Shown here: piece by piece, positions 21,671-46,570 of the stretch
How positions within the stretch are numbered: position 1 is the stretch's first letter
Layout of the letters: each line of letters starts with the position of its first letter
DNA from: a virus
Reading direction: 5' to 3' (one strand)
UHGV virus genome: UHGV-1370141
DNA: 64,000 nucleotides
The notes under the pieces: generated by a model
The model's database searches: none
Seen by the model: only the letters and a program-made list of their open reading frames with translations
What the model was told of the DNA's origin: nothing
Translations under genes and position numbers: made by a program

Positions 21671-21692
21671 TCTCTACTCCGGAGTTTATCAG

Positions 21693-21711
21693 GGTGGGAG
21701 CGACCCACCCC
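21693..21711 (-). other. GC stem-loop (gggtggg / cccaccc) between the 1388-aa gene stop and the next SD; no U-run
   Basis: 7-bp perfect inverted repeat. Confidence 0.35.
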
Positions 21712-21717
21712 TTGAGA

Positions 21718-24700
21718 TTATTTAAGTGTCGCTGGTAACTCAGGCACGGACTCGCCGTCGAGGATACGACCGATAAGAATCCCTGCTTGTTCACCCACAG
21801 CATTTGCGGTACCGATTCGTTGGATAGAACCTACGATACGTGCGTCGACAGAATCACGACCGAACAAAATGTCAATGTCATCGCCATCTTCTGTTTTGTT
21901 TTCCCCGTACATCACTTCTTGTACAGTGGTTTTCAGCTGGTTAGCAATAACCATCTTATCCGCTGCGGCCATTTCCACTTCGTGCGTAATAAAGAATCGA
22001 ACACAAAGCGAGTTAAAGGCTAACGGTACACCCTCTACACGGTAATCCCCATTAACACTCCCTGATACCGGATCGCCACGATTAACAGCCAATGCTGCTT
22101 TACGACGAATGCGATCGTATTTACGTACCAGTTCTGCCAGTGAAGGCGTCATGTCTTCGGTTTCACCGTGATATACGACTTCGATTTTATCCACGATACC
22201 ACGAACCCCAGCACGAGGCGCGTACGAACTTAAACTTTGCAACGTTTGTGCTGCTTCCTTACTAAAGGTACTCATATCCCCCGTAAGGTCGTCAGTAAAT
22301 GTGCATAGGATTGTGTCGACGTCAACGTGTTCCCCTTCGTTAACGATTTCCAGGAGCATCTGGTTGCTGTTAATCACCACTTCTTTCAGCTTAGTAACCT
22401 GCCCAACCATTTTCTTCGCGAACCGTTCAGAAATAGCATTGGAGTCTTCGATTACTTCTTCAGCTTCGATTAGAGCGACGGTAGCCAGCACCCCGTTTTT
22501 CCAGGAAACCTGAGTAGGGTCGTAGATATCGGGTTCAAAGTGTTGCTCGTTATAGGTGATGACTGCCCCGGCCGGGAGTTTGTCACCGGCTTTCCAGCGA
22601 GTCACCAGGGTGTGCGGATAGAAGGTACCTTCGTGGGGGCCGAACCAGCGCCCTAGAGGAAAGGCTTCTTTACTTCCATCTTCGTACGTAATTTCGATAT
22701 GGTCTTTAGACAGACCGGTGATTTTACCTGCTTTATCAATAACGCGTGCGTGTTTCACCGATGTACGGTGAGCGACAAATTTCTCCTGTTCGGTACGATA
22801 AGGGGTAGTGGTAGCGCCGTTGCAACTGGTGGCAGAACCTAACTGAATCCCAACGAAGTTTTGACGTTTAGCGTCGTCCATCAGGGTATCCGGCACGAGA
22901 CCGTCAATAAATGACAGAGTGTCGCTCGGCTTCAGTTTCTTTTCATCCCGTTTATAGGTTGTGCCGTCAACGGTATCAAAACGCGGGTTGTTGGTGGCGA
23001 AAGCAGTAATACCTACGTCACCGTTATCCACCGTGTTACCGGATACAATACCCAGGTCACTCGGTTGGAACTCACGCGTGTGATAAACCATTGTTTTACG
23101 GTTACGGCCACCCGTACCACCCATGGTGATAACGTCTTTCTCTTTAATCGACTGGATAGGGTTAGCACCCGGCGCTAACAGAACAGACGGGTCGGAGTTA
23201 ATTGCGCCCCAAATCATGTCCTGAGTAAGCTCGAACTTACGGTTACTGTTCGGTGCGTTGTTGTAGTTACGCATCGCCCTGACCATCGCAGTGTAGATGT
23301 GGTAGGAAATACGTTGGTTCCCTAAGAACATCATTTCATCACCGTTAATCTCCGGTAAAGAGTGGTCGGTTTGTAACAGTTCGTTAGAACGTTCCAATAG
23401 CCCGATAAAGGTTTCCGGTTCACCCATTTTCCTGAGGATACGTGCGTGCATGTCATCAACAAACGCGGCCCGCATTTGTTTCAGCTCGTTGATGTAGCGT
23501 GGAGTTAGCCCATCTGCATCACGTATTAAGTTCAGGTAAATGTCTTCGCGGTCGACTTCGGACTCGGTATAAGCTACCAGGTGTTTCAGGTACTTATCCA
23601 GACCGTGTAGAATCATTCGTTGCTGATCGTTATCACACGTTACCAGGAACTTACTGTCCTGGAGACGAATAATAGAATCGTACGTGCTCTTATCTACACG
23701 TTGGCCAACAGGGACGATTTCGTACTGAATACCGAAATGTTTAAGCATCCCTTGCAGACCTAAATAGAACGAGAAGATGAAGCCCAGTGAGAGCGATTTG
23801 CCCATCAGTGAAAGCTCGGTCATTTCTCTTGGCGCTTTCTGGCTACTGAAGCCAAGCACTTCCGAGATGGTACCCAGTGGTGTACACTCTTTACCCTTAA
23901 CGGTATAGAGCATGGACTTGGTATCCATCACCACAATAACTTCACTGCGCGGACGTTTCGCAACCGGCAACATCTCAACGTTGTTTGCGTCAGTAAGCTG
24001 TTCGTCATTAAAGAAGTTAACCGCTTCTTTATAATCGAAGTTCCACATATACCCGCCTGCATTGAAGCTGGCGATACGGCGTGCAATCTCCGTGTACTGA
24101 CGAGGAAGTTTCTCTGTAGGATCGAAAACGTTCGCGAGACGTGCGTCGGTGATCTCCGTGTTGGTCGGGTCTACGGCACGCGTGATAATCGCGTTCGTTA
24201 ACCAACGGCCGTAGTCGTTTGCGACTTTGTCACTACGACGTACGAAGTTTTTACCGTAAGCGGTAGTTAACGCTACGGTGTCTGGGGCGACCTTACGAAT
24301 CGGAACGTCTACACGCTGACGACGCATGGTGTATTCAACACCGTTTGCTACCCAGGTACCGTCTTCGGTTAAACCAGGGATAGAGAAACGCACTGTCGTC
24401 GGTTCACCACCAATCGGTTGAACACGCAGGGTGTGGTGTTCGATAGTTCCCGTAACGGAAACCTCTTTCTCGATCGTGTGGTTGTGAATAGCTAAACCAA
24501 GACGCTGCGAGCTGGCGACTGCTGCCAGCACGTCTTTACTCATCATGGTCTGGTTGTATTGTTTCACCATTTGGTCGGTGACGTTTTCTGCCCAACCTTC
24601 ATCCGTAACCAGTCGCTGGACTTTCTTCGGTTCCGCTTTCACGGCAATGTCTTTTTCGTGAATGGTTAATGCTTCACCGTAAGTCTCTTTCGGGTTGTAC

Positions 24701-25884
24701 GGGTTTGGTAACTGAACGAAACGTTTGGTCGAATCAGACAGGAATTGATACGCTTTGGAGCTTAAGCGGCCCGCCTCAGCCAGTTTCTGCGCTTCCTGTT
24801 TGATAATGTCATCGTGAGCAATCGTTTTTTCGATAACGATAGTCGTCGGCTTAACGTCTTCTTTCGGCTCCTCAATAACGAGGTCTTCTTTTTCATCGAA
24901 AGCGTTATCCGATTCAACCACAGCGTCGTTAACAACGTCTGTATCGTCAACGACGTCAACGGTATCCTCTTCGATGTCCTTAACAAAGATACGTTCATCA
25001 CCTTCCGGTGTCAGGAATTCAGCTTCGTAAGCATTAGACGGTGCTTGAGTCATTACACGCACTAACGTACGATAGAACATCCTGGCCATCTGGTCGTCAC
25101 TTAAACGGCCACCGGACGATTTACGCATCTTCTCCACGACACCCATGTTCATCGACGTAAAGCCGCCGTTGTGGGTGAAGATGAAGTTCATTCGAGACAG
25201 TTGCGTTAAGTCCATTCCCGCAAACAGAGAATCGGACTGTTTACCGTACGCCCAAGCGAACAGTTCCAATAACCACAGCAGGTTAAAATCCTGGAACTTT
25301 TCAATCTTGCTTTTAACACGATCGTTATACGTCGTTTGGAACTTCTGGAAAGACGGTAACGTTGACCCCAGCTCAATCACGAAGTAGTTCTGACGCATGT
25401 ATTCTTGCGTGTCGTATTTGAACTGGTTAGTCATTAACAGCTGGATGTTACGCAGTCTGTCGTACCAGGCTAGTTGAGTGTCTGGATAATAGTAGTGCGA
25501 TAACATCGGTGTATAGTTCTCAATAAGGAGAACTTTTAAGTCTTTACGAATCAGGTCATCTGAAGTCAGACGACGAATTGGACGGTTAGCGCGATGATAC
25601 GCAAAGATAGCACGTTCTTGCCCCTGCACAGGTTTGTTACGTGGATGCCCACTGATCCCTTCTTCGGGAAGTTTAAAGTGGTGGCGAATTTGTGCAGGTT
25701 TTTCCAACGGCTGGATGATTTCCAGCGTAGCAGGTGGCGCTAAGACCACCTGATCGAGATCCACGACGTGCAGTATGGAGCCTCGTGGTATCTGGAGCTT
25801 CTCGAGCGGGATAATCCTCGGATTACCAAACTCGTCTGTTTTACGCACAGAGAAGCGTTGGTTAAACTGTTTAATGAGCAGCAT
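21718..25884 (-). CDS. large protein (1388 aa) immediately downstream of the RNAP beta'-N gene; tentative second RNAP subunit, subunit assignment uncertain
   Basis: Adjacent and co-transcribed with 25888..27513; C-terminal block DKMVIANQLKTT...EVMYGENKTEDGDDIDILFG loosely resembles the beta-subunit GDKM...[20 protein letters not shown] region; acidic linker in middle. Confidence 0.3.
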   Translation of the reverse strand: MLLIKQFNQRFSVRKTDEFGNPRIIPLEKLQIPRGSILHVVDLDQVVLAPPATLEIIQPLEKPAQIRHHFKLPEEGISGHPRNKPVQGQERAIFAYHRANRPIRRLTSDDLIRKDLKVLLIENYTPMLSHYYYPDTQLAWYDRLRNIQLLMTNQFKYDTQEYMRQNYFVIELGSTLPSFQKFQTTYNDRVKSKIEKFQDFNLLWLLELFAWAYGKQSDSLFAGMDLTQLSRMNFIFTHNGGFTSMNMGVVEKMRKSSGGRLSDDQMARMFYRTLVRVMTQAPSNAYEAEFLTPEGDERIFVKDIEEDTVDVVDDTDVVNDAVVESDNAFDEKEDLVIEEPKEDVKPTTIVIEKTIAHDDIIKQEAQKLAEAGRLSSKAYQFLSDSTKRFVQLPNPYNPKETYGEALTIHEKDIAVKAEPKKVQRLVTDEGWAENVTDQMVKQYNQTMMSKDVLAAVASSQRLGLAIHNHTIEKEVSVTGTIEHHTLRVQPIGGEPTTVRFSIPGLTEDGTWVANGVEYTMRRQRVDVPIRKVAPDTVALTTAYGKNFVRRSDKVANDYGRWLTNAIITRAVDPTNTEITDARLANVFDPTEKLPRQYTEIARRIASFNAGGYMWNFDYKEAVNFFNDEQLTDANNVEMLPVAKRPRSEVIVVMDTKSMLYTVKGKECTPLGTISEVLGFSSQKAPREMTELSLMGKSLSLGFIFSFYLGLQGMLKHFGIQYEIVPVGQRVDKSTYDSIIRLQDSKFLVTCDNDQQRMILHGLDKYLKHLVAYTESEVDREDIYLNLIRDADGLTPRYINELKQMRAAFVDDMHARILRKMGEPETFIGLLERSNELLQTDHSLPEINGDEMMFLGNQRISYHIYTAMVRAMRNYNNAPNSNRKFELTQDMIWGAINSDPSVLLAPGANPIQSIKEKDVITMGGTGGRNRKTMVYHTREFQPSDLGIVSGNTVDNGDVGITAFATNNPRFDTVDGTTYKRDEKKLKPSDTLSFIDGLVPDTLMDDAKRQNFVGIQLGSATSCNGATTTPYRTEQEKFVAHRTSVKHARVIDKAGKITGLSKDHIEITYEDGSKEAFPLGRWFGPHEGTFYPHTLVTRWKAGDKLPAGAVITYNEQHFEPDIYDPTQVSWKNGVLATVALIEAEEVIEDSNAISERFAKKMVGQVTKLKEVVINSNQMLLEIVNEGEHVDVDTILCTFTDDLTGDMSTFSKEAAQTLQSLSSYAPRAGVRGIVDKIEVVYHGETEDMTPSLAELVRKYDRIRRKAALAVNRGDPVSGSVNGDYRVEGVPLAFNSLCVRFFITHEVEMAAADKMVIANQLKTTVQEVMYGENKTEDGDDIDILFGRDSVDARIVGSIQRIGTANAVGEQAGILIGRILDGESVPELPATLK

Positions 25885-25887
25885 TGA

Positions 25888-27513
25888 TTAGCCTTTTGGA
25901 TTCTTTAATAACGCTTGCGTCGCACGTTTAATCACGTTGTTGACAGGATTGATTTTGAAATTCCCGTCTGAATCGAACCAGTAGTTCTTCGAGTGTATCC
26001 AGTTACGGTTTTCCTCGAGTGCTTCTTGCGACATAGGCGCGTTAAGTGAACCGGTGTCACCATCGTAGTCACCCCCTAAGCCACCCAATCGTGACGGGTG
26101 CGGTGCCATCGACTCGACAAAGGTTGGAACCGACCTGTCAGGATAACTGATAGCTCCGTGTGGCTTTTCAGTCTCCCAGTCATCTTCCAGTTCTTTTAGG
26201 TATAAAGATGACGTGGTGGTCTCCAATCTTATGGTCGATGAGTACGTCGAGCCTCGACCGGTGACGGGATAACGTGTAACGAAACCGAAATAATTGTTCC
26301 ACAGTTCGTAACCCGATAAATAGAGTAATTCTACCAGGGTCATTCCGTGGACGTTTTTACGGTCAAACGTTTTAGGCAGTTCGTCGATATCGTAGAACAC
26401 CTTAAAATGTTTGTTGTCTTGGTAGACCAGTGCGACATAATGGGTATCGTTAATCATTAACGGTTGATGACGAAGCTCGCGAGCTTCCATCCGGTTAATT
26501 AATGTTTCGATGCCATCGTCCGTGGTAAAGGTGTCGTAAACACGACCCCCAACCTCCAAGAACTCACGTTTAAGCGTTTTGGTGTTCACGCCATAAAGGT
26601 TGCCATCGCCAGCACGAATGTTACCGAGGTAACGTTCACGTATCTGGTATTGCGCAACAGGTAGCAACGCTTTCAGACCCTGATACAAACCAATTTTGGT
26701 GTCGGTCGGTCGAATCGCATCCTCACGTCCCATGCATTTAGAGCCTGTGGAGAATGAGGACAACACGTTACGTGTCCCGTTCATCAGTTTACGCGACGTC
26801 ACTTTACGACGTTGGAAACCTCCTTTACCGTCCTGGATGTTAAAGAAGTACATCCAGATTTCGTTAAAGGTTTGTTGGAGTTTCCATCGTACAGGGTTCG
26901 TTAATTCAACCCGTGTAGCACGGTCAGGAATCGCCCTGGCCAAAGAAATCAAACGACGATATAACCCACCGATTTCCTCTTCCTGTTCCCTACCGTCTTG
27001 TCTAACCACCAAATCACGTAAACCCGCGGGTAATACGAGAACATAGCGGCTAAGACTCACGGGACGGAACTTCTCGAAGAAATCCACCGTTTCGTCACGT
27101 TGTAACGATTCGTTACGTCCGGGTTTTAAGTCGTTGTAGTGACTAAGGAAAAAGTTAAAACCGGTATCTGCGCCAGCGTCGCCAGGCAAAGCCGGTTCAA
27201 AATCTTTTTCTTTTTCGCTCCAGGTTGCGTAGCGTTTTCCAGAACAAATTTCTTCGTAGAGTTGTTTTAGTTGGAATAACGCCAAACACACCGTCGGCGA
27301 AATGATATCTAATTTAATATCAATGTAAGAAAACGTTGAGTCTCGGGCTTCACTTCCCGTAAGACCGAATATCTCCGTGGAGTACAACCCTTCAGGGTGA
27401 AAGTTTTTTGTCAACCCTTGAAAAGTATCTGTGGTCGTGACGGGTCGTAATCGCGACACAAGAGACTTGTTTACATTGAGCAGATAAAAGTCAACCCAAT
27501 TAAGTTTATTCAC
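25888..27513 (-). CDS. multisubunit RNA polymerase beta' subunit, N-terminal fragment (541 aa, split beta' as in phiKZ-like phages)
   Basis: Ordered beta' hallmark blocks: EIFG...ISP; VLVLPAGLRDLV...GGLYRRLI; GGFQRRKVTSRKLMNGTRNV; TRYPVTGRGS; catalytic GGDYDGD followed by NAPMSQEALEENR; GTG start with AGGAG SD. Confidence 0.75.
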   Translation of the reverse strand: MNKLNWVDFYLLNVNKSLVSRLRPVTTTDTFQGLTKNFHPEGLYSTEIFGLTGSEARDSTFSYIDIKLDIISPTVCLALFQLKQLYEEICSGKRYATWSEKEKDFEPALPGDAGADTGFNFFLSHYNDLKPGRNESLQRDETVDFFEKFRPVSLSRYVLVLPAGLRDLVVRQDGREQEEEIGGLYRRLISLARAIPDRATRVELTNPVRWKLQQTFNEIWMYFFNIQDGKGGFQRRKVTSRKLMNGTRNVLSSFSTGSKCMGREDAIRPTDTKIGLYQGLKALLPVAQYQIRERYLGNIRAGDGNLYGVNTKTLKREFLEVGGRVYDTFTTDDGIETLINRMEARELRHQPLMINDTHYVALVYQDNKHFKVFYDIDELPKTFDRKNVHGMTLVELLYLSGYELWNNYFGFVTRYPVTGRGSTYSSTIRLETTTSSLYLKELEDDWETEKPHGAISYPDRSVPTFVESMAPHPSRLGGLGGDYDGDTGSLNAPMSQEALEENRNWIHSKNYWFDSDGNFKINPVNNVIKRATQALLKNPKG

Positions 27514-27542
27514 GCTAAATCTCCTGATACGGATTAAACGTT

Positions 27543-30500
27543 ATGGCTAAAAAAGGTAAAGACGATTTCGATGAAATCGATCTTGATAACATGGACGACT
27601 GGGACGATTTTGATGAGCCCCCTCGTCAACAAGACCAATCGCGTAACCCGGTCATGGACACATTTCGTGCTGCCCGTAAGTCGGCATTGTCGACTATCTG
27701 GCCCGAAAATAAACGTGATCAGGTCATTTTAAAAGGAATGCCAAAACCGGCGTCTGACGCTTATGAAGGTTATAAGAACGTCAAAGCCGCAGGTCAAGAC
27801 ATTCTGGCCCATACGAAAGACGAGATTGAAAAGACCTCCCGCGTGGTGAAGGCACAAGCTCGTCAATTAGGCCCAACCCTAAAACGGTATTTGCCTGACA
27901 GCGTAACCCGTAAGATCGATAAATGGGCGAAAAGCGACCAGTACGATTACGGGAATTACGATCCTAAACAAGCATTAATGGATCGTGAGTTAGACACTGT
28001 TTTTGCAGGTACCCCACAAACACCTGAACAACAACGTGAAGTTCAGGAAGGAATGGTAGAAGACCGTCTTCGTGACACCATCAAGGACATGAAGTCTGAT
28101 GCGCTGTTCCAGACGGTTATCGGTATTGCGAAAGACGTTAACCTGACGACCAGTTTAAGTCGTGGGGTGATGCTTAACGTTCAGCGTAAACAGTTAGAAC
28201 TGCAATACCGTACGTTATTCGCGTTGCAAGATATTGCTAAACTTAAACAGGATGAGTTTAGCCGTAACACCCCGGCACTTGAAGCGATTGTTAAAAACAC
28301 CGCGTTGCCGGACTACGCAAAAGAGGAATTCTCTGAAGTTCGTTGGGCTAACGTAAAACGTAAAGCTGCCGAATGGATGAACCCCTTGCGTTACGCGGAT
28401 AACTTTATTGATCAGATTCGTGAGAACGCGAAGAAAAAGATTTCGAATATCTTCAGCGACGGACGCGGGATATTAGAACAAGTTCTGTCAATGGGTCAGG
28501 AAGACGACTTTGGCATGGATGACAGTTCTACACTGTCGCCAGAACGTCGTCGTACGAATAGCCGAGGTAAAGTCGCAGGGTTTGCCGGTGGTTGGTTAGC
28601 AAAACGATTCTTACAACCGCAAGTAGAACGTTTACAGAACTGGACACGCAGTGAGTTAGAAAAGAACCCTGAAGTCATGAAACGGCTTCAGTTGGCACGC
28701 TACGGGTTCGGTAACTTATCTTCTATCTCTAACTCGGCGATTGCTGGTGAGATAGACGGCCCACTGGCCACCGTCTTCCGTTTAATGCACGAGTTGGGGT
28801 TAGTGACACCGCTGCGTCGTGAGGGATTAGCTTTAGAAGAACGTTCAGCAGAAGCGTTATCCGCTGCCGCGAAGTTCGACCGTAAAGCGTATCTTAGCAT
28901 CACGGAAGTCATCCCGACTTTGCTGACGGAGATTAACAAATCTATTCGTCGCGGGTACGGCGAACACCACGACCAGGTGTACGATTTAACCACGCGTGGG
29001 ATGATTGACCGTAAAGTCATCGGTAACCGTGTCCGTAAAGCGGTTGCGAACGATGAACAGCGGAAGCGTTTACAGCAGTACATTAACGAAACCGTTGACT
29101 TTATCGACAAAGACAAAACCCTGGATTCGAAAACTCGCCAGGCGCTGGCGGACTATATCGAATCCCGTGCGTCTGAAGGTAAGGCATTCGACGTAGGCAG
29201 TCTGCTGAAAGACCCGATGCACATGTATCGTTACATGAATGCAAACGCGGTAGAAGCGATTCAGGCGGTCTTAGAAGCACGGTCTTCAGAACTGACAGGC
29301 GGTCATCACGAACTTAGCAATGAGATTGCTAGTAAGATTTCAGCCATTCAGTCAACGATACGTGCACGTCAAAACACGGTAGACGAAGCTTCAATTATCT
29401 ACGGTGAGAATGCGTTACGTGACGCAGGTATCTTTAAGTACGATGCGAAGAACGATCGGTTTGATGTAGATAAAGACATTAACGATCCGTATACGCTATA
29501 CAACGACCTGGCCATGGGGAAAACCCGTTCCGGTCGTTCGTTAACGCGTGAACAAGAAATCCAGCGCAAACTGAAAAACGGTTCTGCGCTAGGTGACTAC
29601 TTACGTCGTTTAGGGGTAGACGCTTCCGTAACCGGTGACGAGTCGACTATTGACACCGTTAAAGGTAAAGGTGGACGTGGTGGTCGTGGGCTGTCGGCAC
29701 GACAACTTGCTGCTGTCCTCTACGGTGAAAAATCCACCAACTTTGTTGAACTGTTAAGCGAACGGCCTGACACTAATGCGGGTTTAGAGCAACAGTTTGA
29801 TAGAATCGTTGATGCTATCCGTAACAAATCCGAATCCAACACCGTGCAGGAAATTCTGAAACATGTTAAGAACATGGATGAGGAAGGCATCCTGCTGGCC
29901 AGCTTAGGTGGTGGTCGTGACGGTGAGGGTGACGCATCTGAAGACGCGGGTAGTACCGGTAACAAACGCAAACGTAAGCGCATTGTGCTTGGTGAAAGTG
30001 GGCTGTTCCGTCGTTGGGCGGGCGTACTTTGGGACACCGGTACGGGTGCTGGTCGTTTTGCGAAGAACATGTTCCTGAGAGGAAAAGGGCGTTTACAGTC
30101 ACTGGGCAGTTTTATCCGTGGGAAGTTCTCCGGTGGGTCTTCTGACGGTCCAGGTGTTTTTGAACGACTGAAAGGTTTAGTTACTGGTACGCTGTCCACA
30201 GGCTGGAATTCAGCAGTAGCGTTCGGGAAAGGCGTTCTTGGTGTTCGAGACATCTACGACGAGAAAGGCAATGTTGTTTTACAAGGTAGCCGTTTAGAGG
30301 CAGGTGAGTATTATCAGGCTGACCCTAAAACCAACAAGTTGGTACAACTCCGCTCGTTAGACGACATTAAGCTGGGTCGTGATATTGTTGACGAAGCCGG
30401 GAACTTGATTCTCGCAGCGGCGGACTTAGCGGCTGCGGGTAAACTGCGCTTCTATAAAGGTGGTAAGCTCCAGGCCCTGTTCCAGTATATCTCTGGTAAA

Positions 30501-33500
30501 GCAGGTACAGCGGTAAACAAAGCTGTTAACTTACCGAAGAAACTGATTGGTCTAATCTCACCAAGAGCAGCGTCTATCTTCGAGAAAGCACGTGAGTGGC
30601 TTAACGAGATTCCCGAGGGTAGTGAGAAAACGCGTTTACAAAGCATGATTTCTCGCGTAACCGGAATGCCTGCTCGTTTGTGGAACAATGCAAAACGCGG
30701 CTTTGAGAAATTCAAAGAGTTAGCGACTGACAACCCACTTACCCGGTGGTGGCAGAATCGTAAGGACGGTGGTTCTGGCGGCGGTTTCAGCATGTTCTCC
30801 TGGTCGAATGGCCGTAAGACCAACCATATCCTGATTCGTATCTATAAACTCCTTAACCGTCGTTTAGACGGTGAGCCTGAAGATGAATCCTGGACGGAGC
30901 AACTGGAGAAAAACGTTGGCTCGAAATCTATCAAAGGGATGCTTAACCGTGTTAAGGATTTCCGCGATGGGTTTAAAGACTATTTCCAGAATTTCCGGGA
31001 TTGGCGAGGCAGACAACGTGACCGGTTCTCGCGTTTCCGTCATGGTGTTGGCGATAGACTGTCACGTTGGGGTGCTGCGGGTAAAGGGTGGTTTGACCGT
31101 TTCCGTGGACGCTTTGGCGAAACGGTAGATAGCTTCCGCGATCCACGCTACGACATTGCCACACGTTATCGGACGGAGTCTCGTTTAGCAGGTCGTGACG
31201 ATGACGTTGCTGAGTTTTACCGTCAACACTTATACGCCCGTGGTAAGGTTTCTCCAACACGCGTGATTAACGCAGCGAAGGAGGATTTCGAAACCGCAAC
31301 GGATAGCGCAGGACGCGTTATCAACAAAGGTAAGCAGAAAGCGAAGAGTGTTGGTTCAGCATTACTGGAACGTTTAAACCGGATGGTTAACCTCCAGGAA
31401 ATGTCCTGGTTTAACACCATGCGTGACTCTGCGGAACGTGCTGGTGCGCCAGATGGCTTGATTCGTACGATGTTCAGTAAATTCGGACAACGTAACAAAC
31501 CGGCAGCCAATGATGAAAAACGCGACTACTTCCAATTCTTCCGTCGTCGTAGACGTTCTAAGGAAGAAGAGAAAGCCAAGAAATCCGCCGAACAGAAAGG
31601 ACGTAAAGGCGGGGTGATGGACTTCCTCAAAGGGCTACCGTTAGTAGGACCAATCGTGAGTATCTTAGGTACGGTGGGTTCCATACTGGGTAAAGTTGCG
31701 AAGTGGGGTATTTTTAAACCTACCGGGTTCCTTGGTAAAGCAGTGTGGAACGTTGGTAAGTTTGCCGTCCAGCGTTTAGCGGTTCCGGCGGTGACTGCGG
31801 TAGCCTCGGCTGCGTCTACGGTGGTAGCAGCGGTGGGATGGCCCGCAATTGTGATCGGTGCGACTGCCGCCGGTCTGGGTTATTGGGCGTATAAATGCGC
31901 TACCCGTGTGAAAGCACAGTACCTCGACTATATGCGTCTGGCACAATACGGTTTCCGTGACTACGACCAGTGGTCTTCTGAAGACGGTATGAAAGCCCGT
32001 TATTTAGAAGACGCTTTGAAACCTTACGTCTCGTATACCGAAGGGGGTGAAGCACAATTACGTGGCTTGTCTTCCGAGGACGTGAAGAAACTCGCAGAAG
32101 GGTTCGGTGTAAACTTAGAAGAACGTGGTGAGATGTTAGCATTTACTGCGTTTATGCTACAACGTTTCGCACCGATTTACCTCCGTTGGATTTCAGCACT
32201 GAAGTCTATGGATAACGATATCGCTTTGGCAGATGTCGGTGATCCGAAGAAAGTGTCGAAAGCGGATATGATTACCCTCTACAACAAAATGAAGATGGGT
32301 AAAGATTCTGTGGAATTCCGTTCGTTGACTGACCCGCGTAAAGTTAACCAGGGTTGGTTCTCTAAAGCGTGGGATTTCGTTACCTTTACACCGGCAGAGT
32401 TCTTGTCAGGGGAAGAGGTTGTCGAAGCACAGGAACGTGTGTGGCGGTCAATCAACATGCGTACCGACGACAAACGGAAACAACGTTCGGGTATGCGTGA
32501 TGCCGTCGAAGGCCACAAAGTTGCGTCCGTTGCTGAAACCAGTCAGGTACTGGCGAATGCGGATGCTGAACGTAACGAGAAAGTTGCGAAGGTTGAAGGT
32601 TGGGAAGACGGAACTGAACAGGTTCAAATCCAAGTTGACTGGCATTCGTTACCGAAGAAAAGCGATTTGGAAGACCTGGAATCGGTCAGGTGGAAAACCT
32701 ACGGTGCGGTTACTATCAACCAAACAACGCGTAATCTTTTCACGCTGTTAGAGAAGAACGTGTTGAAAGACATTGATGTGAAGAACTGTACCTATAAAGG
32801 CAACTGGAAAGAAGCCATTGCGGTTATCTCGCCTGACCTGATAGGTGGTCCTAAAGAGGAGCGTTGTAAGAACTGGTTCTACAACCGTTTCTTACCGGCG
32901 TATATGACCTACGTCGTTGGTCTGAAACGTTACATTCCGCAAGCAGACCCTACCGAATTGAAAGTATCCGGTGGGTTCATGTACGAATTAGCGTTGATGA
33001 TTCGTGGCGCTTACAACATGAAGGGCGGTATTCGTCAGTCCGTGTGGGAGATTCCATTCAACCCGCTGGGTGAGGAAGCAAACACTGACGCAGGTTCTGT
33101 TGCTACTGAACTTGCCAACCTGAAAGAACTGTCAAAAGAACCTGACCTGGCTGTTCGTAACACCCTGCGCTCTACACCCGCAGCAGGAAAACGTGCGAAG
33201 TGGCAGAAAGCCGATCGTGCGACGAGAATGTATCAAACCGACGAAGATACCAAAGATCGTTTCAAAGGTGTCGTTGATTGGGGTACAGCGTCTAACGATG
33301 GGTACTTGCCAAACGGTGGGTCGTCTTACGGTACACCGGGCGATCTGACTCAAGTTGTGGGTGAGATGGGCATCAGCAATTACGCGAAGTTCTCTACGGG
33401 CCAATCCGGGATTAAACTCGGGGACGTCAAAGAAGGTGATTACAAAACCTTGGCTGAGAAGTATCCAATCAGCAAACTGGGTGATGGTAAATCACCTAAC

Positions 33501-34676
33501 GTAGAAGGCGTTAAAGCGATGATTGCGGATGTCGCAAATACCTTAGGTGTTCCGCCTGCGGTCGCGATTGCGATGGCGAAAGCCGAATCTGATTTCAAAT
33601 ACGGTGTCAAGAACCCAGGTGCGTCAGCAGCAGGGTTGTTCCAGTTCATTGACAAAACGTGGTCTGGAATGATGAAAGGGTATTCTCGTCGGTACGGTAT
33701 ACCGCAAGTAAACCAGTATGACCCGTGGGCAAATACCATCCTCGGGGTACAGTTTATTCGTGACAATATCATGCAGGCGCAGAAAGACTTGGGTGGTGTA
33801 GAACCGCCTCCGGCTGTTGCGTATCTGTATCACTTCTTGGGTCCAGGCGGTGGTAAGAAGTTCCTTAATGCGTGGCGTCAGAATCCGAACATGCCAGCCG
33901 ACAAAGCAGAAGGCATTACTCCTCAAATCCTTAGAGGTAATAAGGGGGTCTTCTACGAAATGCGTGGCAAACAGATTGTTCGTATTCGTACTGTTGGCGA
34001 AGTTATTAATGAACTGAACCGCCGTATGGGTGCTGTGGCGACAAACGAAATTGCGGCTAACCCAGCTTCAACGAAAGACATGGTGAAAGGGCTAACGCCT
34101 GCGGTTGCCTCCTCTCCGGCGGTAGCAGCAGGGGCAGCTAACGATCCATCAATTTCTGGAGCGACGGATAACTTGCCTGCGTCCAATGCGGCGCGTCGTG
34201 ACGATGCGTTAGCAGAGAAAGGTGCAATGAGTGCAGACAACGTCAAAGCCGCAACCAGTGGTGGTCCGGCAGTACCGTCACCTGGCGGTAGTAGTGCAGG
34301 CGGCGACGCCTCTATGATTGGGGAGACCGTTGCAGCCGGAGCCAGAAACGAAGGGTTGCCTGAAGAAGATGTCGAGAAGGTGAAAGAAGGTGCTATGCAG
34401 CGCGTAGCAGCGACGAGTAAACCGGCACCTGCGGTTACTTCTGATGCACAAAACGGGCCTACACTCAGTAATGGTGATCCGATTAGTGTTCAGCAGTTGG
34501 CTGTTGCGAAAGAATCGGCGGGCTATCTCAAAGAGATTGTCACGATCCTTAAACAACGCCCGCAGCCGGTTCAAAACACTGTATCGTCTAAACCTACGGC
34601 ACCAGCAGGTTCAGCATCACGACAAATGTCCGTTGAACAGCCAGCACGACAGCTTAACGTTAGACGTGCAGGTTAA
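27543..34676 (+). CDS. giant virion-type protein (2377 aa) with hydrophobic segment and C-terminal lytic transglycosylase (SLT) domain; likely injected cell-wall-degrading protein
   Basis: SLT motifs AESDFKYGV (ES), GLFQF, AYLYHFLGPGG around residues 1950-2050; hydrophobic stretch near residue 1400; Ala/Pro/Ser-rich C-terminal tail. Confidence 0.7.
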   Translation: MAKKGKDDFDEIDLDNMDDWDDFDEPPRQQDQSRNPVMDTFRAARKSALSTIWPENKRDQVILKGMPKPASDAYEGYKNVKAAGQDILAHTKDEIEKTSRVVKAQARQLGPTLKRYLPDSVTRKIDKWAKSDQYDYGNYDPKQALMDRELDTVFAGTPQTPEQQREVQEGMVEDRLRDTIKDMKSDALFQTVIGIAKDVNLTTSLSRGVMLNVQRKQLELQYRTLFALQDIAKLKQDEFSRNTPALEAIVKNTALPDYAKEEFSEVRWANVKRKAAEWMNPLRYADNFIDQIRENAKKKISNIFSDGRGILEQVLSMGQEDDFGMDDSSTLSPERRRTNSRGKVAGFAGGWLAKRFLQPQVERLQNWTRSELEKNPEVMKRLQLARYGFGNLSSISNSAIAGEIDGPLATVFRLMHELGLVTPLRREGLALEERSAEALSAAAKFDRKAYLSITEVIPTLLTEINKSIRRGYGEHHDQVYDLTTRGMIDRKVIGNRVRKAVANDEQRKRLQQYINETVDFIDKDKTLDSKTRQALADYIESRASEGKAFDVGSLLKDPMHMYRYMNANAVEAIQAVLEARSSELTGGHHELSNEIASKISAIQSTIRARQNTVDEASIIYGENALRDAGIFKYDAKNDRFDVDKDINDPYTLYNDLAMGKTRSGRSLTREQEIQRKLKNGSALGDYLRRLGVDASVTGDESTIDTVKGKGGRGGRGLSARQLAAVLYGEKSTNFVELLSERPDTNAGLEQQFDRIVDAIRNKSESNTVQEILKHVKNMDEEGILLASLGGGRDGEGDASEDAGSTGNKRKRKRIVLGESGLFRRWAGVLWDTGTGAGRFAKNMFLRGKGRLQSLGSFIRGKFSGGSSDGPGVFERLKGLVTGTLSTGWNSAVAFGKGVLGVRDIYDEKGNVVLQGSRLEAGEYYQADPKTNKLVQLRSLDDIKLGRDIVDEAGNLILAAADLAAAGKLRFYKGGKLQALFQYISGKAGTAVNKAVNLPKKLIGLISPRAASIFEKAREWLNEIPEGSEKTRLQSMISRVTGMPARLWNNAKRGFEKFKELATDNPLTRWWQNRKDGGSGGGFSMFSWSNGRKTNHILIRIYKLLNRRLDGEPEDESWTEQLEKNVGSKSIKGMLNRVKDFRDGFKDYFQNFRDWRGRQRDRFSRFRHGVGDRLSRWGAAGKGWFDRFRGRFGETVDSFRDPRYDIATRYRTESRLAGRDDDVAEFYRQHLYARGKVSPTRVINAAKEDFETATDSAGRVINKGKQKAKSVGSALLERLNRMVNLQEMSWFNTMRDSAERAGAPDGLIRTMFSKFGQRNKPAANDEKRDYFQFFRRRRRSKEEEKAKKSAEQKGRKGGVMDFLKGLPLVGPIVSILGTVGSILGKVAKWGIFKPTGFLGKAVWNVGKFAVQRLAVPAVTAVASAASTVVAAVGWPAIVIGATAAGLGYWAYKCATRVKAQYLDYMRLAQYGFRDYDQWSSEDGMKARYLEDALKPYVSYTEGGEAQLRGLSSEDVKKLAEGFGVNLEERGEMLAFTAFMLQRFAPIYLRWISALKSMDNDIALADVGDPKKVSKADMITLYNKMKMGKDSVEFRSLTDPRKVNQGWFSKAWDFVTFTPAEFLSGEEVVEAQERVWRSINMRTDDKRKQRSGMRDAVEGHKVASVAETSQVLANADAERNEKVAKVEGWEDGTEQVQIQVDWHSLPKKSDLEDLESVRWKTYGAVTINQTTRNLFTLLEKNVLKDIDVKNCTYKGNWKEAIAVISPDLIGGPKEERCKNWFYNRFLPAYMTYVVGLKRYIPQADPTELKVSGGFMYELALMIRGAYNMKGGIRQSVWEIPFNPLGEEANTDAGSVATELANLKELSKEPDLAVRNTLRSTPAAGKRAKWQKADRATRMYQTDEDTKDRFKGVVDWGTASNDGYLPNGGSSYGTPGDLTQVVGEMGISNYAKFSTGQSGIKLGDVKEGDYKTLAEKYPISKLGDGKSPNVEGVKAMIADVANTLGVPPAVAIAMAKAESDFKYGVKNPGASAAGLFQFIDKTWSGMMKGYSRRYGIPQVNQYDPWANTILGVQFIRDNIMQAQKDLGGVEPPPAVAYLYHFLGPGGGKKFLNAWRQNPNMPADKAEGITPQILRGNKGVFYEMRGKQIVRIRTVGEVINELNRRMGAVATNEIAANPASTKDMVKGLTPAVASSPAVAAGAANDPSISGATDNLPASNAARRDDALAEKGAMSADNVKAATSGGPAVPSPGGSSAGGDASMIGETVAAGARNEGLPEEDVEKVKEGAMQRVAATSKPAPAVTSDAQNGPTLSNGDPISVQQLAVAKESAGYLKEIVTILKQRPQPVQNTVSSKPTAPAGSASRQMSVEQPARQLNVRRAG

Positions 34677-34689
34677 TACATACGGGGGT

Positions 34690-34710
34690 GGGAAACCACC
34701 CCCATCTTAA
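34690..34710 (+). other. GC stem-loop (gggggtgg / ccaccccc, loop gaaa) between the 2377-aa gene and the next gene; no T-run
   Basis: 8-bp perfect stem. Confidence 0.35.
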
Positions 34711-34721
34711 AGAGGTAGAAA

Positions 34722-36923
34722 GTGGACGCTAGAACAGTTAACGACTCAAGCTGGGTCAAAAACCTATTTAATGGCGCAGTCGATGGCCGAGATGAACGTT
34801 TCCTGGCCTTGCGCCGCTATTCCGGTGGTATGATGTCGTTTGAAGACACCACAGTTGGTGGTAGTAAAGCGATTAACACACCGCCCCAGTTTACACTTTT
34901 TGCAGACCCTTCCTCAACAGGCGCGTTTGCACAACCCGACGCGACTAAGAGCGGTACCGAGTCCCTTTATAATTCCTCAGCCGCAGGGTCTTATCGCTTA
35001 GGGACGTATTACTACGAAAGTATCAGCCAGAACTCATTTTACGTTCATTGCCGTTTCGGTAAACCGAAGTATCTGGGTATGGCTTCGTTCTTTGCGAACA
35101 TGTACGACTCTAACCTGGCGTATCTTGCACGTACAGGTGACTATCCAGGAATTATTCGAACAGCGGCATCGTATATCGGTGCGGCTGCTATTTGGGCGAC
35201 GGTGGGTACTGTGGCATTCGCGGTGATTCTGATTACACCGAGGATTCTTTCGGCAGCGCTGAATAAAGAAACGTCAAGATACTATTACGTTAAGCCCACA
35301 ATGCATCTGTACTTACGTGCAGTGCAAAACATCCTGAACACCCAGCTAATTTATCGTCGTTTAGTACCAACGGGTGTGTTAGGGACTTTTGCGTTGGGTT
35401 ACGATACCGAAAGTAAAGAAAATAGTTACCATAAAGATCGTAAAGAGTGGTATGAATCTTTGCCCGAAGTCTGGAAAGCGAACGGTGAGTTTGACATTTA
35501 CCGAATGATTAACCGTTACCAGACCTTGGCGAACTACCAGGCTAAAACTATCGACGCGATTCGTGTAGAATCCGGTGACGATGAAGAATTGTTTGCCAGT
35601 CGCTTACGTGCGTTTTACTATAATGCTACTTACAGCGATAACGTACGTCTAAAAGCAGAACAGTTCGAAGTCTCACTATACAACTTGGAAAAAGTTGCCA
35701 GAAGTGAAAAGGGGGGTTACGCTTCTCCGATACAGGATATTGACAGCCAGGAAGACGAACTCATCGGACAGATGAGTAATAGCCTGGTGGTGGGTGGTAC
35801 CGCTAATGAACTGCAAGAGCAAGCTGCACAAATCCAGTCAGAGCAGGAAAAAACCCGTCAGGCTATGGAGAAACGTGCGGCAGCTGCTAAGCAGTTGAAC
35901 TCTACGTTGGATGAAAAGAACCCGGAGGATCTTACTGAGGGCGATATTGTCGAAGTTCAAGATTGGATGAACAAAGGTAAAGATGAATCCAAAGTAGGAA
36001 CGTTCTTTAAAGAGTTTACCGATATGGTTGCGGATGTTGGCGATAACGTCCTGTCAGAGATTAAGAACGGTTCACAATGGGTTACTTGGCGTATTGACGG
36101 TAAAGACACCGTTTCGCGTTCGTTCTCTAACTCCACGAAAGAACCTGAGATTTCCGGGATGGTAAACTCCGCAACAGCAAAAGCGCGTTCGTTGGAGGTT
36201 AACCTGTCGGGTGGACAAACCGGTTTTAGTGCGGTCGATGCTTTAGTTTCCGGTATTAAGTCAGCGATGCGAGGCGTTGCAGACACCCTACATTTGACAG
36301 GGATAATGTCGTTGTACAACTCCTCGGTGATAGACTTCCCAGAAGTCTGGGATAGTTCTGACGCATCAGGAGACGACATTACTTTAACCATTCCTTTACG
36401 TTGTTGGTCGGGTAACGACCTGGATATTTTCCAGGATTTGTTAGTTCCGCTTTCGTTTTGGATTGCAGCAGTGTGTCCTCTGGCTACAGGTAAACAATCT
36501 TTTACTCACCCGTTCTATTTAGAGTGTTATTCACAAGGACGTTTTTCTTTCCGTAACGCGATGGTGACGTCGATGTCGTTACAGTTCGGTGTGGGTGGTT
36601 TAGGTTGGCGGCCAGGTGATTCCGTCCCACTGTCTTGCGACATCTCTGTTACTATTCGTGATTTGACTCGCGTTATGTACATGCCCATTGTTACTGACAC
36701 AGGTGTGTGGGATGATGATAACAAATTCAGTGAATTTATGGCGTGTTTAGGTGGTGCTACGTTGTACGAACGTACTAACGGTATTGCGCGTGCCAAGATT
36801 AATGCGAGCATCTGGGCACAAAACTGGGCATCTGCATGGTCACAGGGTAGTTTTATTAACTCGGCACTGGATGTTATCCCAGCACGCCAGATCGCGAACA
36901 TCTTCCTGCCGCAAGCACGTTAA
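34722..36923 (+). CDS. hypothetical virion protein (733 aa) with a hydrophobic segment
   Basis: GTG start with AAGAGG SD; hydrophobic IGAAAIWATVGTVAFAVILIT. Confidence 0.55.
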   Translation: MDARTVNDSSWVKNLFNGAVDGRDERFLALRRYSGGMMSFEDTTVGGSKAINTPPQFTLFADPSSTGAFAQPDATKSGTESLYNSSAAGSYRLGTYYYESISQNSFYVHCRFGKPKYLGMASFFANMYDSNLAYLARTGDYPGIIRTAASYIGAAAIWATVGTVAFAVILITPRILSAALNKETSRYYYVKPTMHLYLRAVQNILNTQLIYRRLVPTGVLGTFALGYDTESKENSYHKDRKEWYESLPEVWKANGEFDIYRMINRYQTLANYQAKTIDAIRVESGDDEELFASRLRAFYYNATYSDNVRLKAEQFEVSLYNLEKVARSEKGGYASPIQDIDSQEDELIGQMSNSLVVGGTANELQEQAAQIQSEQEKTRQAMEKRAAAAKQLNSTLDEKNPEDLTEGDIVEVQDWMNKGKDESKVGTFFKEFTDMVADVGDNVLSEIKNGSQWVTWRIDGKDTVSRSFSNSTKEPEISGMVNSATAKARSLEVNLSGGQTGFSAVDALVSGIKSAMRGVADTLHLTGIMSLYNSSVIDFPEVWDSSDASGDDITLTIPLRCWSGNDLDIFQDLLVPLSFWIAAVCPLATGKQSFTHPFYLECYSQGRFSFRNAMVTSMSLQFGVGGLGWRPGDSVPLSCDISVTIRDLTRVMYMPIVTDTGVWDDDNKFSEFMACLGGATLYERTNGIARAKINASIWAQNWASAWSQGSFINSALDVIPARQIANIFLPQAR

Positions 36924-36939
36924 TGTTTGAGAGGAAATA

Positions 36940-37503
36940 ATGGCTAATACGCTATTAGGTAAATCAGGAAAACAACTGGTTTATGAGTTATTAGTAAAAA
37001 AGAATCCAGGTTTGGTAGAGAAAGGTATTACAATCGATAAATTGAATTTCGGCACGCCGTCACATATTCCTGCGGTAGAAACACCAGAAACTCAATTTAC
37101 GCGATTAAATACTCAACTTAGCGTCCAGGGTATCATCGAGCAGAAAACATTTGGTAAAATTGACGTTATTTATCGTCGGTTGGATTTAGAGCACCTGTTA
37201 GGTGACTTTGTAGTTTCTGTTGCGGGTGTTAATGCGGCTACGGTATCTGAGGTACTACAGCTTTTTCGCACTAAGTACAATTTGCAGATTACGGATGACG
37301 AAGTTGAGAACCCAACAGCTGCACCAGACAGCAGAGATAAAACCATCATTATCATGAACGGGAGATCTTTGGCTTGGACAGGTCAGTTGGAAGTGTACTT
37401 AACTGAACTGCCATCTGACGGTAAGGATATTTCGAAGCTGATTAAAGTTACCGAACTTGACGGTTTGACGTATATCTCTTCTGGAATTGTTCCTGGCGCT
37501 TAA
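36940..37503 (+). CDS. hypothetical protein (187 aa)
   Basis: ATG with GAGAGG SD; terminator downstream. Confidence 0.55.
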   Translation: MANTLLGKSGKQLVYELLVKKNPGLVEKGITIDKLNFGTPSHIPAVETPETQFTRLNTQLSVQGIIEQKTFGKIDVIYRRLDLEHLLGDFVVSVAGVNAATVSEVLQLFRTKYNLQITDDEVENPTAAPDSRDKTIIIMNGRSLAWTGQLEVYLTELPSDGKDISKLIKVTELDGLTYISSGIVPGA

Positions 37504-37528
37504 AAAAAGAAAAAAAATAAGAAAGTTA

Positions 37529-37560
37529 ACCTACCTCCTTTCGGAGGTAGGTACTTTTAT
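37529..37560. terminator. bidirectional intrinsic terminator (stem acctacctcc / ggaggtaggt, loop tttcg)
   Basis: Same stem sequence as terminator at 13825..13851; flanking A- and T-runs. Confidence 0.65.
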
Positions 37561-38391
37561 TTATTTCGCCAAATCTGCTTCTTTTACAAAAATACCGTCA
37601 GCGTTCAGATAGCCTTTACGGTCTTTGATTTCGTGCCAGGCTAAAGAGAAGCAATGGCGAATGTCAAGACGATAGTAGAGAGCCAGTTTTGCAAGACGGT
37701 ACAAAGCCCAGTTAAGCTGATCGAAACCAGCATCGGAGCGAATAAATGCGGTAGCGAAGATTTCGGTAGCGTGGAGATACAGATGGTGCGGATACCCGTT
37801 GTCATCAAAATGTTCTTCAACGTCAGCGACATCATCCACCTGTAGCTGTAAACCGTGCTCGATGATCTCGGTGGTTGACATTTCTCCAGACAGTTTGTCT
37901 TTACCCAGTTCCAGGATGTTTACCAGAACCACTAACGCATCACCGATACCATCCATGATCAGTTCAGGTTTGTTTTTACTGATACCTGTTGCGATTTCAC
38001 CAAACTCTTCAAAGAATTTCGTGATTTGGGTTTCCAGTTTACCGTTATCGAGGATGCCGCGTTCTTTAGACCAGCCTTTAACATGTTCTGCACAGTTCGC
38101 AATAGAATAGACCGGAACCGATACGGTGTGCATTACTGTACCGTTATATTCGGCACCTGTAAGTTTAAGCGGCGCTTCAATCGTTTCGATGTCCAGTTCC
38201 TGATTACCGGTGTGGCGTTTACCTTCTACGCGAACACGGTTAGTACCAGGATTTACCCCGATGGTGTAGATAGCATCAAACTGAATCGCTTTCTCGTCCA
38301 TAGCGCGTAGTTGTGTGTTAACTTCGTCCAGGAAGTTACCTGGGTTAAGAACGATGTTGTAGATAGCGTTGATGTTAAAACGTTCGCCCAT
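37561..38391 (-). CDS. MazG-like nucleotide pyrophosphohydrolase domain protein (276 aa)
   Basis: C-terminal half has MazG-like helical pattern (EEFGEIATGISKNKPELIMDGIGDALVVLVNILELGKD) with acidic metal-binding residues. Confidence 0.4.
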   Translation of the reverse strand: MGERFNINAIYNIVLNPGNFLDEVNTQLRAMDEKAIQFDAIYTIGVNPGTNRVRVEGKRHTGNQELDIETIEAPLKLTGAEYNGTVMHTVSVPVYSIANCAEHVKGWSKERGILDNGKLETQITKFFEEFGEIATGISKNKPELIMDGIGDALVVLVNILELGKDKLSGEMSTTEIIEHGLQLQVDDVADVEEHFDDNGYPHHLYLHATEIFATAFIRSDAGFDQLNWALYRLAKLALYYRLDIRHCFSLAWHEIKDRKGYLNADGIFVKEADLAK

Positions 38392-38419
38392 TTTAAAACT
38401 CCATTAGATTAAACAAAAA

Positions 38420-38454
38420 AAGAATAAAGATTAGGGGTGCTACATAAGCACCCC
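38420..38454 (-). terminator. intrinsic terminator (stem ggggtgct / agcacccc, U-run on minus strand)
   Basis: 8-bp stem directly downstream of small ORF 38463..38606. Confidence 0.5.
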
Positions 38455-38462
38455 GTGAACTG

Positions 38463-38606
38463 TTAAATTTTGCAAGCCCCGCCTGAGCAGTTATCGTCTT
38501 CCGTAGTTGGGTCAGCACCCTTCTCTACGGTAGCTTCCGGGTCTAAGCCAGGGATTGCAAATTCGTCAGTTTCTTTAACGGTTTCTACTTTAACTTCTTC
38601 AGTCAT
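38463..38606 (-). CDS. small acidic peptide (47 aa) ending in Cys-containing CSGGACKI; translationally coupled to upstream small ORF
   Basis: Hand translation MTEEVKVETVKETDEFAIPGLDPEATVEKGADPTTEDDNCSGGACKI; ATG overlaps upstream TGA (ATGA); terminator follows. Confidence 0.35.
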   Translation of the reverse strand: MTEEVKVETVKETDEFAIPGLDPEATVEKGADPTTEDDNCSGGACKI

Positions 38607-46539: not shown

Positions 46540-46570
46540 TGACTTCTTTTTGAAAATGAGGTGGTTTTAA

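Follow-up and report, generated by a model that had tools for sequence, protein, structure and literature searches.

A giant, probably tail-internal protein with a lytic transglycosylase domain and its putative divergent promoter region in a phiKZ-like jumbo phage

What kind of virion protein is encoded by a gene of more than seven kilobases that starts only 29 bp away from a divergently oriented gene for an RNA polymerase subunit, and from where are the two genes transcribed? This question is raised by a stretch of 64,000 nucleotides from the UHGV virus genome UHGV-1370141, hereafter called the window. At positions 27543..34676 of its plus strand, a single open reading frame (ORF) with an ATG start encodes a protein of 2377 amino acids (the giant protein), in agreement with an initial annotation that had claimed one ORF of 2377 codons at this place. 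The source, a jumbo phage not described before, is a relative of Seoulvirus and Erskinevirus. The product of the ORF is best explained as the tail-internal giant protein of phiKZ-like (Chimalliviridae-type) jumbo phages, orthologous to gp239 of SPN3US and gp181 of phiKZ, and we put the probability of this reading at about 0.75. Part of its interest lies in the naming of the gene family, since the identification corrects, in a new phage, the label "tail fiber" that is widespread for gp181/gp239 genes.

Identity of the giant protein and its wall-degrading domain

The profile of PHROG 3201 matches the giant protein with 2092 bits. In a tblastn search, 242 phage records matched, and the best of these, from Asesino, SPN3US, and their relatives, were 61% identical to the giant protein from end to end (100% of its length). 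With the gp181 proteins of the phiKZ type, identity amounts to ~23%, and the similarity is colinear: BLASTP against the phiKZ-type homolog of phage PA7 aligned residues 1450-2210 (E 4e-36) as well as residues 12-550 (E 3e-17). Thus, these colinear matches, together with PHROG 3201, uphold the relationship with phiKZ gp181 that had been suspected from the sequence. The nearest proteins are unannotated and of metagenomic origin (98, 80, and 78% identity). At the nucleotide level, megablast of positions 27000-35000 against 50,697 phage records returned one weak match of 191 bp and, hence, no close sequenced relative for this region among them, and a search of NCBIfam with the giant protein and its neighbors gave no matches.

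Members of the family are strikingly uniform in size, their lengths being tightly clustered around a median of 2411 residues. A size of ~2200-2600 residues, a central hydrophobic cluster, and a muralytic domain ~560-650 residues behind this cluster were taken as marks of the gp181/gp239 family. The giant protein shows all of these properties, and both this layout and the position of the hydrophobic cluster are kept in 109 of 117 homologs. One family member of 2253 residues (P0095) is encoded in a 492-kb contig assigned to Paraburkholderia adhaesiva, which could reflect a jumbo phage that was co-assembled with, or is carried by, this bacterium.

Evidence for a location in the tail comes from the orthologs. 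In SPN3US, the virion protein gp239 (259 kDa) was named tape measure; mass spectrometry of wild-type and tailless particles revealed that it is missing or depleted in the latter (PMC5105663; PMC10052503). Gp276 of 201phi2-1 is a virion protein by mass spectrometry, and orf181 of phiKZ is essential and has been called "likely the tape measure" (PMC12676376).

The coordinates of the enzyme domain of the giant protein are as follows.

33525..34022, plus strand: lytic transglycosylase (SLT/GH23-like) domain, residues 1995-2160 (Pfam, alignment with phiKZ gp144, models)
33585..33587, plus strand: codon of the catalytic residue E2015 (alignment of the ES motif)

Pfam family PF01464 (SLT) matches residues 1997-2082 with 32.7 bits when the whole protein is searched and with 36.2 bits when a fragment is used, both above the cut-off of 21.3 bits. 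The domain aligns with phiKZ gp144 over residues 1995-2159 (E 1e-14), with E2015-S2016 opposite Glu115 of gp144, and gp144 entries are its only sequence matches in the PDB. The fold is lysozyme-like. The motifs listed in the initial annotation are all present, i.e., ES at residues 2015-2016, GLFQF at 2031-2035, and AYLYHF at 2093-2098; only the position it gave to the domain, residues 1950-2050, has to be shifted ~45-100 residues toward the C terminus. It had also named two possible grounds for rejection, failure of the SLT motifs at the profile threshold and poor conservation of the catalytic Glu. The profile score lies well above the threshold, and the ES motif is invariant in 77 of 81 aligned homologs, the remaining four of which carry a GH19 domain instead, so that the catalytic Glu is unchanged in every member that has an SLT domain. 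By its catalytic residue and its fold, the giant protein carries a family-1 lytic transglycosylase domain, and activity of the protein itself is predicted. PhiKZ gp181 was reported to be muralytic with 60,000 U/mg (reviewed in PMC5380687).

Although the family is colinear in other respects, its muralytic module is exchanged. Several members, including the "putative chitinase" of Goslar (Goslar_00232; L013:10417-17175), contain GH19 in place of SLT, one member contains GH24, and others have an additional VanY-type peptidase or S74 domain (examples of such swaps are P0042-45, P0108, P0116, P0117, P0092, P0102, P0111, and P0114). Since the module is exchangeable, wall degradation, rather than one particular fold, appears to be the selected function. 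In the 2026 atlas of the phiKZ virion, gp144 is a structural component wedged in where the neck whiskers meet the sheath (PDB 9xps_S; PMC13250141), and phiKZ virions therefore carry two gp144-type transglycosylase domains. A search of the PDB with the phiKZ-type homolog of the giant protein found gp144 alone, which indicates that gp181 has no deposit there.

Tape measure, pilot, or another virion component

The remainder of the protein, on which a more precise assignment of its role depends, can be divided into the following segments, all encoded on the plus strand.

27564..27620, plus strand: acidic N-terminal patch DFDEIDLDNMDDWDDFDEP, residues 8-26 (translation)
27648..31562, plus strand: long, mostly α-helical N-terminal part, residues ~36-1340, a candidate tube-lumen or ruler segment (models)
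28287..28337, plus strand: IVKNTALPDYAKEEFSE, residues 249-265, the top conserved motif of the whole family (family alignment)
29640..30242, plus strand: poorly conserved low-complexity region rich in Gly, Lys, and Arg, residues ~700-900 (composition)
30933..31142, plus strand: long helix rich in Arg and Phe, residues ~1131-1200, the least conserved stretch with most insertions and deletions (alignment, model)
31611..31880, plus strand: hydrophobic, Gly/Ala-rich cluster, residues 1357-1446, with 2-4 segments resembling membrane spans (Kyte-Doolittle)
31890..33152, plus strand: family-specific folded helical domain, residues 1450-1870, with a predicted local distance difference test (pLDDT) score of 80-90 (model)
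34035..34673, plus strand: Ala/Pro/Ser-rich C-terminal tail with predicted helices (composition, model)
34482..34553, plus strand: conserved tail helix, residues 2314-2337, in which L2329 is nearly invariant (alignment)

An acidic N terminus, a long hydrophobic segment near residue 1400, and an Ala/Pro/Ser-rich tail had been described before and were all recovered here, the first as the patch listed above, the second as a cluster in which Kyte-Doolittle values exceed 1.5 (19-residue window) at residues 1357-1386 and 1412-1446, and the third as 21% Ala, 8% Pro, and 16% Ser plus Thr in residues 2201-2300. Gly/Arg-rich repeats had been described as well. The composition was found (22% Gly and 18% Lys plus Arg in residues 801-900, and an Arg/Phe-rich stretch at about residues 1151-1200), but the supposed repeats are low-complexity patches; Tandem Repeats Finder detected just one 9-nt unit, present 2.2 times at positions 29670-29689.

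In the model of residues 1-1200, 64% of the residues are helical, mostly in long helices, with a mean pLDDT of 57 (low confidence), and a fold search with these 1200 residues yielded nothing at E < 2. Such a low-confidence helical prediction would be expected for an extended protein that is ordered only inside an assembly. IVKNTALPDYAKEEFSE is flanked by two long helices in a part of the model with low confidence; ILIRIYKLLNRR, at residues 1096-1107, is the second most conserved motif. These strongest family-wide motifs both fall outside the enzyme domain, and they may be binding sites for partner proteins. The folded domain of residues 1450-1870, for which no fold match was found in the PDB, occurs in 350 representative clusters. 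Among the 150 clusters listed, it takes a constant relative place in proteins of ~2100-2800 residues, and the few shorter sequences with this domain among those listed are probably fragments. The part that follows a conserved RLAQYG anchor is constant in length (867-921 residues), and the N-terminal part varies (1356-1603 residues), with ~1600 residues in CR5 or Derbicus-type phages and ~1450 in SPN3US. This anatomy defines targets for mutagenesis, i.e., the NTALPDYAKEEF motif, the hydrophobic cluster, the domain of residues 1450-1870, E2015, and the swappable enzyme module.

The giant protein shares several traits with tape measure proteins: it is encoded by the largest tail gene, it is long and mostly helical, it contains hydrophobic segments, and its gene lies beside genes for baseplate hub or initiator components. 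We infer that it is a tail-internal protein of the tape-measure type, with the ruler step as the weakest part of the mechanism proposed here. Judged by sequence profiles, it falls outside any sequence-defined tape-measure family.

In this mechanism, the giant gene would be a late structural gene, presumably co-transcribed with the downstream genes for a gp182-like protein and a DUF7941 protein up to a terminator-like hairpin at 37529-37552, as their layout suggests. During assembly, the conserved C-terminal part would dock at the baseplate hub and spacer, whilst the helical first ~1350 residues would fill the lumen of the tail tube during its polymerization, in a tape-measure-like manner. During infection, after contraction of the sheath and loss of the spike, the giant protein would be expelled first, followed by the DNA. 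The lytic transglycosylase of the protein, with E2015, would then cut MurNAc-GlcNAc (N-acetylmuramic acid-N-acetylglucosamine) bonds and open the peptidoglycan locally. Finally, by analogy with T5 Pb2 and lambda gpH, residues 1357-1446 may insert into the inner membrane and help to form a conduit for the DNA and for co-ejected proteins.

Several observations weigh against this mechanism, mainly against its ruler step. When tape-measure families of Pfam were compared with 20 family members, none matched at E ≤ 0.1, and a Pfam search with seven sub-fragments of the giant protein at E ≤ 1 returned SLT plus a single tape-measure hint, a match to Tape_meas_lam_C that remained below threshold (E 0.029; 14.9 bits vs. 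a cut-off of 23). The tail tube of Goslar (46 x 39.16 Å = 1801 Å) and that of phiKZ (43 x 37.73 Å = 1622 Å) differ by 11% in length, whereas the Goslar homolog, with 2252 residues vs. 2241 in phiKZ, is only 0.5% longer, and its part before the RLAQYG anchor is even 1.3% shorter (1356 vs. 1374 residues); this comparison covers the two phages for which structures exist. At 1.5 Å per residue, a single helix of the giant protein would span 357 nm, vs. a tail of ~200 nm. The membrane step is drawn from analogy, and the hydrophobic cluster is much weaker in the phiKZ-type homolog. Moreover, the protein is neither modelled nor mentioned in the phiKZ atlas (PMC13250141) or in the Goslar structure. Thus, the largest virion protein of the phiKZ-like phages, although essential in phiKZ, is absent from both near-atomic virion structures of 2026. 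A ruler test based on tail lengths from negative-stain images was discarded, as the available values are imprecise or implausible (160-200 ± 20 nm; 116 nm).

The disproportion between protein and tube length in Goslar and phiKZ would suit a protein that resides in the tail lumen without acting as a ruler, and that is ejected as a pilot or conduit to cut the wall and to build a channel across the envelope, with tail length being set otherwise. The same can be said of the excess of the protein, which has ~1.7 times the length required of a helical ruler in a 200-nm tail, of the failure of tape-measure profiles to match any of the 20 members searched, and of the 68-Å lumen of the phiKZ tube, which could hold folded domains. 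However, the comparison involves only two phages and depends on the conformation that the protein takes in the lumen. Furthermore, family lengths are tightly clustered, the combination of a constant C-terminal and a variable N-terminal part is what would be expected if the N-terminal part alone measures, and these genomes contain no other known candidate for a tape measure. A lumen protein devoid of any ruler function is regarded as rather unlikely. A more far-reaching and quite speculative proposal is that the giant protein is the main ejected "pilot" of the chimalliviruses. Its folded C-terminal 900 residues, with the hydrophobic cluster, the family-specific domain, and the swappable enzyme module, would act on the envelope by opening the wall and remodelling the inner membrane. 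If so, these 900 residues might seed the membrane-bound vesicle where these phages first deliver their DNA, and the variable N-terminal half would merely pack the protein into the unusually wide (68 Å) lumen of the tube.

Other virion locations fare worse than the tail lumen. In older work, phiKZ gp181 and 201phi2-1 gp276 were regarded as components of a cell-puncturing spike that, like gp5 of T4, carries a lysozyme-type domain on a needle. Accordingly, gp181 is listed as a "needle-like cell-puncturing device" in a review (PMC5380687), and the 201phi2-1 record bears the note "putative cell-puncturing device." This idea is superseded, because in the phiKZ atlas the spike is formed by gp164 and its tip by gp163.1, on the hub protein gp101, without gp181 (PMC13250141). 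In addition, the models contain ~50-64% helix and 4-5% strand, and the OB-fold and the β-helix needle on the hub that characterize the T4 gp5 type are lacking, which makes a role in the spike very unlikely. Hardly more can be said for a protein of the T7 gp16 type, which is packaged inside the head together with the DNA and then injected. It is true that the lytic transglycosylase domain is part of a very large protein of the ejected type, that these phages package many ejection proteins, and that the giant gene adjoins the genes for the virion RNA polymerase; but absence of the protein from purified tailless heads has already been reported, and the head-internal location and the N-terminal lytic transglycosylase domain of the gp16 type were not found. 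Finally, a tail fiber, as most of the matching records and PHROG 3201 have it and as SPN3US gp239 is labelled in GenBank, can practically be dismissed, since this is a legacy label, no fiber-like β-structures or receptor-binding domains were found in Pfam searches and models, the ortholog is called tape measure in the literature (PMC5105663; PMC12676376; PMC10052503), and the fibers of phiKZ are gp131-135 (PMC13250141).

The 29-bp divergent gap and the neighboring genes

The second part of the question concerns the transcription of the giant gene and of its divergent neighbor. The relevant features of the region are the following.

27514..27542, no strand: 29-bp divergent gap, consisting of hardly more than CTCCT (AGGAG when read on the minus strand, for the gene there) and the GGA(A) of the plus-strand gene
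27392..27692, no strand: peak of nucleotide and synonymous-site conservation over both gene starts, a candidate site for embedded promoters
25888..27513, minus strand: N-terminal subunit of virion RNA polymerase beta', 541 residues, with DYDGD at residue 482 (PHROGs, motif)
21718..25884, minus strand: N-terminal subunit of virion RNA polymerase beta, 1388 residues, corresponding to SPN3US gp241 (PHROGs)
34684..34703, plus strand: GC-rich hairpin GGGGGUGG-GAAA-CCACCCCC (-19.9 kcal/mol, z -2.6, no clear U-run), located in the 45 bp that separate the giant gene from the next gene
34722..36923, plus strand: homolog of phiKZ gp182 and Goslar gp203, i.e., of the ring that serves as baseplate spacer in the tail-tube initiator complex (sequence matches)
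36940..37503, plus strand: structural protein of the virion with DUF7941, encoded at the end of the plus-strand unit (Pfam, PHROGs)
37529..37552, no strand: bidirectional terminator-like hairpin with a perfect 10-bp stem and T-runs on both strands, located between convergent genes and closing the plus-strand unit

The divergent neighbor starts with GTG, with AGGAG ahead of the start. In SPN3US, gp240 and gp241 are the N-terminal subunits of beta' and beta, respectively, of the virion RNA polymerase (PMC5105663), and the earlier designation of the neighbor as the N-terminal part of beta' is confirmed by its catalytic DYDGD motif and its orthology with gp240. The gap between the two genes measures exactly 29 bp, the length that had been given for it. 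The same length is found in the three metagenomic relatives mentioned above (98, 80, and 78% protein identity), in SPN3US, and in Asesino. In ChrisDB, the gap is 14 bp when the annotated TTG is taken as the start and 29 bp when a downstream in-frame ATG is used that is conserved in the relatives; the TTG start of this homolog (L003 2923-2937) is probably 15 nt too far upstream. Elsewhere, the gap measures 23 bp (CR5), 40 bp (pVa-21), 63 bp (PA7), or 152 bp (Goslar). Since divergent genes are closely spaced elsewhere in the window, too (gaps of 39, 62, and 97 bp), tight packing is a property of this genome. GC skew changes from slightly negative to values of +0.10 to +0.15 from ~27500 onward, over the giant gene and the two genes downstream of it; the coding strand changes at the same place, the 29-bp gap.

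Because the gap holds only the ribosome-binding sites of the two genes, both units would need to have their promoters antisense inside each other's 5' coding sequence. The surroundings lead to the same conclusion, since no same-strand gene upstream is near: for the giant gene, the nearest is located ~14 kb away, and for the RNA polymerase genes, it lies past the bidirectional terminator. That the promoters must overlap or lie within coding sequence had been deduced before from the size of the gap, and the two opposed Shine-Dalgarno sequences and the frozen synonymous sites at both starts are consistent with this deduction. At positions 27392-27692, nucleotide identity to the relatives with 80 and 78% protein identity is 0.91-0.99, vs. 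0.65-0.9 elsewhere. In codons 1-50 of the giant gene, synonymous codon identity reaches 0.89-0.96, vs. 0.49 elsewhere, which ranks first among 230 windows (Fisher p 1.6e-8 and 9e-12 for the excess). A weaker excess is seen over the first 25 codons of both genes in independent pairs, i.e., SPN3US compared with ChrisDB and with Asesino (p 0.001, 0.14, 0.016, and 0.029). From the layout and the frozen synonymous sites, we infer that promoters are embedded in both 5' coding sequences.

The scans for known promoter signals weigh against this interpretation. Searches for sigma-70 sites, enriched k-mers, and TATG located no promoter for either divergent gene. Specifically, no sigma-70 site was found in the 29-bp gap, k-mer enrichment in 31 upstream regions yielded only Shine-Dalgarno sequences, T-runs, and fragments of the early promoter, and the late motif TATG of phiKZ is absent from the 250 nt upstream of either start, except for one copy that overlaps the ATG start itself. 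According to a published statement, the middle and late promoters of these phages are not predictable (PMC7598289), which matches these results. Sigma-70-type matches are depleted in positions 21000-38600 of the window (8 found vs. 18.1 ± 3.6 expected), which fits transcription that is independent of the host polymerase.

The conservation around the starts might also be due to recent recombination rather than to regulatory constraint. In the window and its metagenomic relatives, it takes the form of a tract of ~300 bp with 97-99% identity and fairly sharp edges in a background of 75-88%, which counts against embedded promoters. The tract is, however, centered exactly on the two starts, the 29-bp length of the gap is kept across genera whose proteins are ~50-60% identical, and the independent pairs, which are saturated, retain the codon excess over the first 25 codons of both genes (p 0.001, 0.016, and 0.029). 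A recombination tract is thus a possible but less probable source of the conservation, above all of its strongest signal. A quite speculative idea is that the gap, strictly conserved at 29 bp, and the frozen codons on both sides of it serve the RNA polymerase of the phage itself as a compact promoter for both directions, located within the two coding sequences. The gap and these codons offer a defined place to seek middle or late promoters.

An AT-rich motif, AGATAKATATTAY, occurs four times in the window, always on the minus strand (1874-1886, 16660-16672, 46528-46540, and 55125-55137) and each time upstream of a minus-strand gene. This number compares with 0.14 copies expected and was reached in 0 of 100 shuffles. 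The motif looks like the early (virion RNA polymerase) promoter consensus of this phage; none of its copies lies near the 29-bp gap.

Downstream of the giant gene, the product of 34722..36923 matches a gp182-type protein of PA7 (E 8e-38) and the PDB chains PHIKZ182 and Goslar "tail tube initiator complex protein gp203" (E ~1e-53). In the 2026 atlas, phiKZ gp182 is a hexameric ring that acts as a spacer and separates the hub from the tube initiator (PMC13250141), and in the Goslar structure, the tube-initiator complex consists of two layers, one of them formed by gp203. A third PDB entry, 36za_rp "Capsid decorator gp77" (648 residues), matches the gp182-type spacer as well (E 1e-52); either its name or its assignment seems to be at odds with the two former entries. 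The gene order, with the beta and beta' N-terminal subunits on one side of the divergent gap and the giant gene followed by the gp182-like gene on the other, is kept in SPN3US, Asesino, ChrisDB, CR5, pVa-21, PA7, 201phi2-1, and Goslar. The hairpin at 34684-34703 could be an attenuator or an element that affects RNA stability; similar GC-rich hairpins occupy several other intergenic gaps.

Comparison with known systems

T7 gp16 is head-internal, its lytic transglycosylase domain is N-terminal, and it bears no other similarity to the giant protein, which is a functional analogue only. PhiKZ gp144 (PDB 3bkh) is a separate protein of 260 residues that was long treated as the endolysin and is not part of a giant protein.

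Muralytic or membrane-active parts are a feature of the tape measure proteins T5 Pb2, lambda gpH, and T4 gp29. As commonly described, these three proteins are encoded by the largest tail gene, next to genes for baseplate hub or initiator components, they are mostly helical, and they contain hydrophobic segments in the C-terminal half and a wall-degrading module, all of which applies to the giant protein as well. The latter, in contrast, is 3-4 times longer, exceeds what the tail needs, and has no match among the tape-measure families of Pfam, and no pair of frameshifted chaperone genes is apparent upstream of its gene.

PhiKZ gp181, a structural peptidoglycan hydrolase, resembles the giant protein in its colinear homology at both ends, in having a gp144-type lytic transglycosylase toward the C terminus, and in its gene order (gp178/gp180 on one side of the gap, gp181-gp182 on the other). 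At ~23% identity, however, the phiKZ-type protein is ~135 residues shorter and has a weaker hydrophobic cluster, and its gap measures 63 bp. The closest known counterpart is SPN3US gp239. Although the giant protein belongs to a different and undescribed phage, the two are 61% identical over their full lengths (2372 and 2377 residues), share the same order of domains, and have matching neighbors on both sides, including the divergent gap of 29 bp.

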